DNA of 64,000 nucleotides from contig JBAZGA010000003.1 in NCBI GenBank assembly GCA_041653115.1, positions 1,832-65,831 on the forward strand. The letters run 5' to 3'. A program made the translations under genes and the position numbers. Below, in pieces: positions 15,920 through 17,940 of the stretch; positions within the stretch are counted from its first letter, which is position 1, and each line of letters opens with the position of its first letter. The notes below the pieces were generated by a model, which saw only the letters and a program-made list of their open reading frames with translations, did no database searches and was not told the origin of the DNA. This DNA is from Candidatus Omnitrophota bacterium. GTDB lineage: Bacteria; Omnitrophota; Gorgyraeia; Gygaellales; Profunditerraquicolaceae.

Positions 15920-16915
15920 CTATACCGCCTTCAAATATTTAGCTGCCAACTCAGGCGAGGTCGAGTCAAGATAAAAACCCGTTCCCCACTCAAAACCGGC
16001 TACCCTGGTTAACTTAGGCATAAATTCGATATGCCAATGGTAATACTCGACTCCCCCGTCTCCGTTTACCGGAGAGGAATGTAGTATAAAGTTATACGAT
16101 AAATTAACAAATACTTTTTTGACCTTGGCTATGGTTTCCCTGAGTATGCTCGCCAATGCCGGGATTTCTTCGTGGGGCATATGGCAAAAATAACTACTGT
16201 GTTTCTTGGGGACTATCCAGATTTCAAAGGGAAAACGGGAAACAAAAGGGCAAAAAGAAATAAAATATTTGTTCTCCAGGATTATCCTTTCCTTTTCCTG
16301 GCTTTCCTGTCTGATGATATCGCAAAAAATACAGCGTTCGCGGTATTCAAAATAATGATAAGCGCCCGTTATCTCCTCCGCTACATTTTTCGGCACCATC
16401 GGAAGCGCGACAATCTGGGTGTGCGGGTGCTCCAAGGAAGCGCCTGCCGCCTTTCCGTAATTCCGAAAGAGCATGATATATTTAAAGCGCTTGTCTTTAA
16501 CCAGGTCCAGCGCCCGGCGGCACCACATCTGGATGACTTTTTCCACCTCTTCGTTCAATAAGTCAGAGATATCCTTATCGTGATAAGGCGTTTCAATTAA
16601 GACTTCATGCGCCCCGACGCCGTTAGACAAGTCGTAAATACCCTCTCCTCTTCTGTCTATCTCTCCTTCAATCTGCAATGCCGGGAATTTATTCGGCACC
16701 ACGCGCACCTGCCAGCCGGAGGTATTCGGGGCGGTGCCGTGATGGCGGAAAGAATCTACTTCCGGGGGCGTCATCGCTTCATTGCCGTAACAAAAAGGGC
16801 AAAGCCCGCCTTTAGGTATATACTGTTCGTACTCAAAATCTTCGGGTTTATTGGGATGGTCGGTATCCACGATTACCCATCTTGCCACTATCGGGTCCCT
16901 TCTGATCTCTGACAT
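15920..16915 (-). CDS. galT: Galactose-1-phosphate uridylyltransferase family (GalT/HIT-like), catalytic copy
   Basis: 331 aa. Zn site CPFC. Active-site HPHTQ (nucleophilic His-Pro-His) present. Confidence 0.78.
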
Positions 16916-17940
16916 TATATTTCAACCTCTCTTAAAAATTTAGCCGCATCCTCGGGCGGTAAAGGGCAGATATAAAATCCGGTCCCCCATTCAAAACCCG
17001 CAACCCGGGTCATCCGCGGCATAATCTCAATATGCCAATGATAATCGTGGTCTATACTTTTCCAGTAACCGACCTTTGTCCTTCTAAAAGGTGCAGTATG
17101 TAAAACATAATTATAGGGCGGGTCGTTCAACCCTTTCTTTAATTTCATCAGGACTTTTTTTAATACGCGCGCCAAATCCAGGCGCATTGACATATCCAGG
17201 TTGATAAAATCGCAGGAATGCTTCTTGGGTAAAATCCAGACCTCAAAAGGGAAGCGGGAGGCAAACGGCGTTATGGCAATAAAACCGTCTATATCGAGAA
17301 CCAGCCTGTCTTTGGACCCTAATTCCTGTTTGATTAAATCGCAGAATACGCATCTCTCGTGGTAATCATAATACTGCCTGGCGCCGACGAGCTCCTCTTT
17401 AACGCGTTTCGGGTTAACCGGCGTGGCAATCAATTGCGAGCGTGCGTGCTTGACTCTCCCTGCGCCGGCTATCCAGCCGTGATTTTTAAAAACCAGCACA
17501 TATTTAAAGCGCTTATCTTTTTCCAGGTCAACTAACCGGTCTATATAGCAGGTGATTACTTTAGAGATCTGCTCCTCGCCTAAATCAGCCATATTGGCGA
17601 TATGCTGATTTGTTTCGATAACAATCTCATGCGCGCCTACGCCGTTCATCAGATCATACAGACCCCTTCCCCGGCGCTCAAGTTCGCCTTCTATCTTTAA
17701 AAAAGGCGCAATGCTGGGCACTACCCTTAAATCCCATCCCGGGGCGTTAGGGGGAGTCCGTTCCGGCCTTACGGCATATATCTCGGGAGGAGTCTCGGAT
17801 TCTTTGCCTTCGCAAAAAGGGCAGGGATTTTCCGCAGGGCCTTCCTGAGCCTGTCCGCTGAATTGGTCAGGACGCTTGGCGCGTTCGGTGGCAATAATTA
17901 CCCATCTTCCGATAATCGGGTCTTTTCTTAATTCCGGCAT
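16915..17940 (-). CDS. GalT-family paralog with a substituted active site (HAR in place of HPH)
   Basis: 341 aa. Co-linear with the downstream GalT (CPFCEGKE; the C-terminal [23 protein letters not shown] is almost identical). The nucleophile motif reads KHARSQ. A 1-nt TAATG overlap with the next gene. Confidence 0.72.
   Translation of the reverse strand: MPELRKDPIIGRWVIIATERAKRPDQFSGQAQEGPAENPCPFCEGKESETPPEIYAVRPERTPPNAPGWDLRVVPSIAPFLKIEGELERRGRGLYDLMNGVGAHEIVIETNQHIANMADLGEEQISKVITCYIDRLVDLEKDKRFKYVLVFKNHGWIAGAGRVKHARSQLIATPVNPKRVKEELVGARQYYDYHERCVFCDLIKQELGSKDRLVLDIDGFIAITPFASRFPFEVWILPKKHSCDFINLDMSMRLDLARVLKKVLMKLKKGLNDPPYNYVLHTAPFRRTKVGYWKSIDHDYHWHIEIMPRMTRVAGFEWGTGFYICPLPPEDAAKFLREVEI

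Follow-up and report, generated by a model that had tools for sequence, protein, structure and literature searches.

Within a 64,000-nucleotide stretch of a Candidatus Omnitrophota genome (assembly GCA_041653115.1, contig JBAZGA010000003.1, positions 1,832 to 65,831; the whole stretch is referred to here as the window), we analyzed two adjacent genes whose products resemble class I galactose-1-phosphate uridylyltransferase (GalT). We refer to the upstream gene and its product as A and to the downstream ones as B. The initial annotation had described two neighboring GalT-like genes with a common CPFC zinc site, a nearly identical C-terminus, and KHARSQ in one copy at the place of HPHTQ in the other, and both the open reading frames and their alignment bear this description out. 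The pair and the sites within it on which the analysis depends are the following:

16915-17940, minus strand: gene A, an open reading frame of 341 amino acids whose product, a paralogue of the GalT-like / ADP-glucose-phosphorylase-like type, lacks the HIT nucleophile (H165-A-R167-S-Q169)
15920-16915, minus strand: gene B, an open reading frame of 331 amino acids encoding the predicted catalytic paralogue, with H163-P-H165-T-Q167 intact
17440-17448, minus strand: codons 165-167 of A, CAC GCA CGC (His-Ala-Arg), with Arg167 at the position of the nucleophile His
16421-16429, minus strand: codons 163-165 of B, CAC CCG CAC (His-Pro-His), with His165 as the predicted nucleotidyl acceptor
17872-17883, minus strand: codons 20-23 of A (R-A-K-R), matching R28/R31 of E. 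coli GalT and R48/R51 of the human enzyme
17701-17715, minus strand: codons 76-80 of A (S-I-A-P-F), where B and the single-copy enzymes have an invariant N-K-F-P-A; the site corresponds to N77-D78 in E. coli and N97-D98 in human
16913-16917, minus strand: the TAATG junction, in which the stop codon of A and the start codon of B share 1 nt

A and B are 49% identical over their full length (BLASTP, E = 2e-121) and have in common the CPFC zinc knuckle as well as a stretch near the C-terminus. The KHARSQ motif of A (from residue 164) aligns column for column with EHPHTQ of B, so that codon 167 of A (CGC, 17440-17442) stands opposite codon 165 of B (CAC, 16421-16423, both on the minus strand), and no shift of the register brings back a His in A. 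At the Arg167 column, At5g18200, the ADP-glucose phosphorylase of Arabidopsis, reads sHsHsQ, and the PDB entry of its ADP-glucose complex (2H39) has Gly exactly there. E. coli GalT has HPHGQ at the same column.

The Arg in A is not a sequencing error. A protein of 100% identity is encoded in a metagenome-assembled genome at NCBI. All of the best 120 homologues of A (80-88% identity) read H-[SATC]-[RK]-S-Q, and Arg is found in 42 of 45 upstream copies from loci of GTDB species representatives; conservation of the variant, which the initial annotation had suggested checking in an alignment of homologues, thus holds, with Arg or Lys in every one of the 120. Five different codons specify this Arg in the upstream copies (CGT 18, CGC 13, AGG 5, CGG 3, and CGA 2). 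A sequencing error is ruled out by the 120 homologues with the same motif together with these five codons, and because the codons have turned over synonymously, Arg167 itself is under selection. The ratio of nonsynonymous to synonymous substitution rates (dN/dS) is 0.03-0.065 for A, no higher than the 0.03-0.08 of B, and mean pairwise identity is 0.67 for A versus 0.62 for B, with A the more similar in 87% of 630 comparisons. Both genes are under strong purifying selection, and a decaying pseudogene A is ruled out by its dN/dS and by its being more conserved than B. Consistently, the AlphaFold2 model of A is confident (predicted local distance difference test, pLDDT, 94.6; predicted template-modeling score, pTM, 0.92).

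Both proteins score above the Pfam gathering cut-offs for the two-domain class I GalT fold (HIT superfamily, IPR001937), namely PF01087 (GalP_UDP_transf; A 34.3 and B 51.5, cut-off 22.1) and PF02744 (GalP_UDP_tr_C; A 47.5 and B 50.9, cut-off 29.2). Both also pass TIGR00209, A barely (A 104.9 and B 131.5, cut-off 102.1), and it is solely from this model that the pair has its public name, "galactose-1-phosphate uridylyltransferase." NF008724, the equivalog model for the E. coli type, is failed by both (122 for A and 143 for B, cut-off 448). The zinc site (C40, C43, H104, and H165) is kept in all A and all B copies. The HxHxQ nucleophile motif is present in B (HPHTQ; 39 of 39 sequences in its clade) and absent from A (HARSQ). 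By these sequence features, A has the class I GalT fold but is not a catalytic member of the family.

The nearest relative of known structure is At5g18200 rather than GalT, by sequence as well as by structure. It is the best PDB sequence match of A (E = 2e-74) as well as of B (E = 3e-64), compared with 1e-21 for E. coli GalT, and a Foldseek search with the model of A returned 2H39/1Z84 as best PDB match (template-modeling score 0.84/0.92, 38% identity). PDB chains of the GalT fold match this model with template-modeling scores of ∼0.8. Pyrobaculum GalT comes next, and then E. coli and human GalT at ∼22% identity.

The active site of GalT draws on both chains of the dimer. In the human enzyme, Arg48 (E. 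coli R28) belongs to the other chain than Gln188 of the active site, and the hexose-phosphate pocket is completed by the C-terminal loop of the partner chain (PMC5081055). In E. coli GalT, R28, R31, G159, and S161 contact UDP-glucose; for human GALT, the same study (PMC5081055) describes substrate binding by Asp98 and a bond from Asn97 to Gln188 of its own chain. Class I GalTs strictly need dimerization to complete the pocket. We compared the corresponding residues across GTDB loci, in 45 sequences of the upstream copy (A), 39 of the downstream copy (B), and 36 of single-copy enzymes. The numbers of sequences that keep each residue (A numbering) are as follows:

His167: A 3/45; B 39/39; single-copy 36/36
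N76: A 1/45 (mostly Ser); B 39/39; single-copy 34/36
K/R77: A 4/45 (mostly Ile, Val, or Leu); B 39/39; single-copy 34/36
A80: A 1/45 (mostly Phe); B 39/39; single-copy 34/36
S/T161: A 14/45 (Ser lost: Gly, or Thr in 8); B 39/39; single-copy 35/36
R20: A 43/43; B 2/39; single-copy 34/36
R23: A 41/43; B 2/39; single-copy 33/36

Both arginines together occur in no B copy, and B of the window has His20 and Lys23 in their place. A keeps N153, Q169, and the sugar loop, with Gln169 changed in two members of the A clade. Judged by these columns, A has lost the residues of its own site and kept those that it would lend to a partner, and B has done the opposite. We infer that only an A:B dimer would rebuild one complete site, the other site being disabled from both sides. 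The loop at 285-300 was also considered as an element of this reciprocal loss and was rejected, as its length already differs among single-copy enzymes.

Losses on the partner-chain side are also seen outside the pair. Zixibacteria SM23_73_3 has two unlinked paralogues, one canonical (L055) and one with both His but without R20, R23, and K77 (L069), and an Ignavibacteria sequence (L067) resembles the latter in keeping both His and lacking the same three residues. L069 and L067 may represent independent, unlinked cases of partial partner-chain loss.

A and B are also tightly linked as genes. Both are present in every Omnitrophota pair-type locus with enough sequence, and the distance from the stop codon of A to the start codon of B lies between -8 and +9 nt in 35 of 41 pairs. 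The 1-nt TAATG overlap reported in the initial annotation is indeed found at the junction in the window and recurs among these pairs, occurring in 14; such an overlap is consistent with translational coupling.

Moreover, we found three natural A-B fusions (P0121, P0271, and P0272) of 596-599 amino acids and 52-56% mutual identity, which come from three separate assemblies. The N-terminal half of the fusion keeps MSELRK..WV..AVERAKRP, which includes R20 and R23, and the whole C-terminal half-domain with an invariant stretch, and it is devoid of CPFC, GxGAHE, and HxH. The C-terminal half begins at CPFC and hence lacks the first ∼38 residues, R20/R23 among them; all own-chain motifs are still present in it, and its own C-terminal loop varies (GFEWSTGSY, GFERETEIY, and GFELATGSY). 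Loci, junctions, and fusions agree in presenting A and B as strictly co-occurring and coupled genes. Read from its sequence, the fusion is what such reciprocal loss would be expected to end in, and it is also Rosetta-stone evidence for an association of A with B. The fusions share the context tyrS-fusion-gap-pgk-tpiA; the P0121 locus reads tyrS-fusion-gap-pgk-tpiA-secG, with phosphoglucomutase upstream. This phosphoglucomutase gene (L090, 1-1285) has the orientation of the fused gene and precedes it by ∼3.7 kb, and its proximity fits a role of the enzyme in glucose-1-phosphate metabolism.

As to the origin of the pair, the A clade groups with single-copy enzymes that have a loop of 16-19 residues at 285-300, and the B clade with those whose loop has 8-10 residues. 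The pair appears to join two old subfamilies. A recent tandem duplication was considered and is ruled out by this clade placement and by the identities, A and B each being ∼55% identical to the outgroups versus 49% to each other. Among the upstream copies, three (L031, L038, and L039) have His167 with N76 gone; K77 is lost in L031 and L039, and Lys is kept in L038. Because these three keep His167 without N76, erosion of the own-chain site most likely preceded the change from His to Arg. Two metagenome-assembled genomes labelled Omnitrophota (L044 and L068) carry a single canonical copy within a glycogen cluster.

We next turn to the likely substrate. An exhaustive search of representative sequences yielded 7,728 relatives, some of which share a chain with a GT5 glycogen synthase (P0148, 814 amino acids) or with GH57 (P0180 and P0189, 858-875 amino acids). 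Such fusions tie the GalT-like / ADP-glucose-phosphorylase-like domain physically to alpha-glucan metabolism. Among the 36 single-copy loci, almost all of which are from phyla other than Omnitrophota, at least one of GlgA, GlgC, GH57, and GlgB is encoded within 6 kb in 29; a GT5 glycogen synthase gene adjoins in 24, and GlgC-like, GH57, and GH13 branching-enzyme genes occur in 6-8 each. The Omnitrophota pair generally lies in the order priA-fmt-A-B-gap(-pgk-tpiA), with gap next in 37 of 44 loci, often followed by pgk and tpiA. No glycogen genes were detected by tblastn in the window or in the Omnitrophota pair loci, apart from a weak GlgC-like match to an rfbA-like gene. Leloir genes (galK/galE) are likewise absent from the surroundings of the Omnitrophota pair, which consist of fmt, priA, gap, pgk, and tpiA; the relatives have glycogen genes as neighbors. 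Homology and the genomic context of the relatives suggest that the family is ADP-glucose-phosphorylase-like rather than one of Leloir GalTs. The His that the initial annotation called "uridylyl-accepting" was thus probably assigned the wrong nucleotide, since these proteins are nearer to ADP-glucose phosphorylase than to Leloir GalT. A further family member of 871 amino acids (P0145) has a long low-complexity N-terminus, after which two complete GalT-like copies with intact HxH (HAHSQ in one and HPHSQ in the other) follow in the same chain; it is a covalent, "homodimer-like" form and distinct from the degenerate fusion of the Omnitrophota type.

Taken together, we consider it probable (roughly 0.6) that A and B form an obligate heterodimer of the GalT / ADP-glucose-phosphorylase fold with one working composite site, a proposal drawn from comparison of sequences. 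The catalytic/pseudo-catalytic heterodimer put forward in the initial annotation thereby gains support, of an inferential kind, from reciprocal loss across ∼40 genomes, gene coupling, purifying selection, and fusion. Our confidence in the substrate is lower than that in the heterodimer.

In such a heterodimer, the active site would be shared by two chains, as each active site of this fold is. One chain would give the zinc-anchored H-x-H-x-Q nucleophile loop and the nucleotide contacts, and its partner the two N-terminal arginines and the C-terminal loop that grips hexose-1-phosphate. B would provide His165, N75, K76, S160, and Q167 (B numbering), and A would provide R20, R23, and the C-terminal sugar loop around 312-323; the reciprocal site, composed of the nucleophile loop of A and the arginine positions of B, would be disabled on both sides. 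His165 of B would be the only nucleotidyl acceptor, attacking the alpha-phosphate of a nucleoside diphosphate-hexose, most likely ADP-glucose, with glucose-1-phosphate as the leaving group. In the second half of this ping-pong cycle, phosphate or another sugar-1-phosphate would accept the nucleotidyl group, the hexose-1-phosphate or phosphate acceptor being held by R20/R23 and the C-terminal loop of A. The overall reaction would most likely be ADP-glucose + phosphate <-> glucose-1-phosphate + ADP. A itself would be a pseudoenzyme, kept by selection as a structural and substrate-binding partner. The preference for Arg or Lys at position 167 may reflect a residue that neutralizes or plugs the vestigial pocket; alternatively, Arg167 may bind an anionic effector, as N153, Q169, and the sugar loop of B remain there.

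Relatives without the nucleophile His are not confined to the pair. Loss of this His recurs in the GalT-like family: of 147 representatives at 50% identity, ∼15 (within P0124-P0266) show another residue at the nucleophile position, namely R, S, V, Y, I, C, or L. We inspected loci of such relatives, including L081, L082, L085, L088, and L089. P0127 (HCSSR) follows fmt with no B copy, P0138 precedes acetate kinase, P0131 lies between genes for type III pantothenate kinase and a Usp protein, P0134 follows a baeRF-family gene, and P0200 is immediately preceded by LarB-like (AIRC) and LarC-like (Ni_insertion) genes. No adjacent catalytic copy was found for P0127, P0131, P0134, P0138, P0146, or P0200, the contig of P0146 (L087) being only 1.7 kb long. 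The idea that His-less relatives in other lineages are tandem partners was dropped, there being no adjacent catalytic copy in the six checked.

Several points weigh against the proposed heterodimer. The partner-chain role of R20 and R23 is transferred by analogy from E. coli and human GalT at ∼22% identity, and the clade groupings come from a neighbor-joining tree without support values. The C-terminal loop of B shows full conservation where A and B are separate genes, so that reciprocity does not extend to all partner-chain elements, and His20 and Lys23 of B in the window could still bind phosphate weakly. Lone His-less relatives without a nearby partner suggest that a protein of this fold can serve a separate function even when the nucleophile is missing. 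Regarding the substrate, which is deduced from homology and from the context of relatives, the Omnitrophota pair adjoins gap-pgk-tpiA and not glycogen genes.

These points leave room for other explanations. A and B might function separately, for example as homodimers, with B self-sufficient despite its loss of R20/R23 and A a non-catalytic protein that is only co-expressed with it and binds ligands or regulates, perhaps by sensing glucose-1-phosphate or phosphate. Such an arrangement would agree with the occurrence of His-less family members as single genes in unrelated contexts, with the retention of N153, Q169, and the sugar loop in A, and with the basic residue that many B copies have at position 23 (Lys in 19 of 39). 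We nevertheless regard it as unlikely, since it leaves unexplained why B has lost R20/R23 only in genomes where A keeps them, why these arginines are almost invariant in A, and why the fusion of the sister lineage has the N-terminus of B deleted. Still less probable, in our assessment, is that A remains an enzyme, a phosphorylase or transferase without a covalent His in which Arg167 aids in-line displacement or binds another anionic substrate. In its favor, every one of the 120 close homologues has a basic residue (Arg or Lys) in place of the His, the synonymous turnover of its codons marks the position as selected, and the zinc site, Q169, N153, and fold of A are intact. However, position 80 of A is occupied by a bulky Phe, and N76, K77, and S161, which correspond to residues of GalT that contact nucleotide and phosphate, are lost as well; with these three losses, this reading, which is the sub-functionalized phosphorylase of the initial annotation, is disfavored. 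Catalytic constraint on the A clade is also not uniform, three members keeping the His and two having a changed Gln169, and the fusion lineage deletes the whole region yet keeps the gene. Finally, an artefact or decay, meaning an erroneous Arg167 or a gene A on its way to becoming a pseudogene, is refuted to the extent that we assign it next to no weight, given a full-length open reading frame, 120 homologues of at least 80% identity with the same motif, dN/dS of ∼0.04, and a confident structural model.

Compared with the obligate heterodimer as such, a more far-reaching proposal is rather doubtful and is offered tentatively. The pair would then be, to our knowledge, the first HIT/GalT obligate heterodimer to have arisen through reciprocal loss in a two-chain site, with its stages still living: N76 lost with His kept, His changed to Arg, and fusion with the dead parts deleted. 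The vestigial site of A (N153, Q169, the sugar loop of B, and Arg167) may have taken on a new role as an allosteric pocket that binds phosphate or hexose-phosphate and so links the turnover of ADP-glucose and glucose-1-phosphate to the presumably co-transcribed gap-pgk-tpiA genes of lower glycolysis.

The signals and the gene that flank the pair are listed below:

18002-18030, minus strand: promoter-like element, TTGCAT, a 17-nt spacer, and TGaTATAAT (extended -10), directly after the stop codon of fmt
14884-15903, minus strand: gap, encoding glyceraldehyde-3-phosphate dehydrogenase, starting 16 nt past the stop codon of B, with AAGGAGG ahead of its start
14839-14861, minus strand: terminator-like hairpin 3' of gap, with 9 bp, of which 6 are G-C, followed by TTTTATTT

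The TTGCAT-17-TATAAT elements are present as the initial annotation had described them (TTGCAT at 18030-18025 and the -10 at 18007-18002), the whole element lying in AT-rich spacer sequence. TTGCAT agrees with TTGACA at only 3 of 6 positions, for which reason the promoter scan did not list the element. The gap gene is probably co-transcribed with A and B.

Directly past the gap terminator lies a gene for a small protein of 133 amino acids (14297-14698, minus strand), which from its sequence has the look of a winged-helix DNA-binding protein. It is followed by an rfbA-like gene for a glucose-1-phosphate nucleotidyltransferase (13429-14295, minus strand), to which the weak GlgC-like tblastn match refers, and by an overlapping open reading frame (12609-13439, minus strand) that by the same kind of inspection resembles dTDP-4-dehydrorhamnose reductase. 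The genes at 12609-14698 form a second glucose-1-phosphate-consuming set adjoining the A/B pair. Generally, essentially all genes of the 64-kb window point one way: 53 of the 55 open reading frames of at least 200 amino acids are on the minus strand, and the two on the plus strand (40934-41746 and 43877-44518) sit within larger minus-strand frames and are probably spurious. Rfam and tRNA scans of the window returned no family and no tRNA gene above threshold.

These observations bear on annotation as well as on evolution. Thousands of A-clade database entries carry the name "galactose-1-phosphate uridylyltransferase" even though the catalytic nucleophile is missing from them, and the B clade is possibly misnamed too, if its substrate is ADP-glucose. 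The locus offers a route, readable from sequence, from a homodimer with shared sites to an obligate heterodimer, of which intermediates and fused end states survive, and a few point mutants could test constructive-neutral against adaptive explanations. It also draws attention to a widespread bacterial ADP-glucose-phosphorylase-like family within glycogen clusters. In a limited set of literature, we found no HIT/GalT pseudoenzyme or heterodimer, no bacterial ADP-glucose phosphorylase, no work on GalT in Omnitrophica, and no account of the Omnitrophota pair. The term "ADP-glucose phosphorylase" in most papers means ADP-glucose pyrophosphorylase (AGPase), and the available parts of a 2024 Chemical Reviews article on prokaryotic alpha-glucan enzymes make no mention of GalT-like proteins.

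Among known systems, At5g18200 (1Z84, 1ZWJ, and 2H39), which converts ADP-glucose and phosphate to glucose-1-phosphate and ADP, is the closest. It resembles the pair in its CxxC/His zinc site, its N-terminal R-A-K-R-P motif, and its C-terminal GFE loop, and it is a dimer with active sites between the subunits, as proposed here for A and B. However, its dimer is made of one kind of chain and has two equivalent sites that both contain the nucleophile His186, whereas the pair consists of two genes with Arg in one chain. Class I GalT of E. coli and human has in common with the pair the fold, the zinc site, the HxHxQ motif (in B), and the composite site of two subunits that is proposed for the pair, but differs in its ∼22% identity, in the failure of the pair to pass NF008724, in the absence of Leloir neighbors, and in the missing nucleophile of A. 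The small and large subunits of plant AGPase, and GlgC/GlgD of Firmicutes, combine catalytic and non-catalytic paralogues in one hetero-oligomer and also serve glucan-related metabolism. These enzymes have the unrelated NTP_transferase fold, and their active sites are not made of two chains, so that no reciprocal loss between own-chain and partner-chain residues arises in them. More generally, pseudoenzyme heterodimers in which an inactive homologue is kept as the obligate partner of an active paralogue are described in the reviews PMC10211241 and PMC5106787. The fold, the family, and the idea of a pseudoenzyme partner are already known, and the pair adds no new kind of system to them; it is a neat and testable case of an active site of two chains that has undergone reciprocal loss, and a correction to annotation as well.

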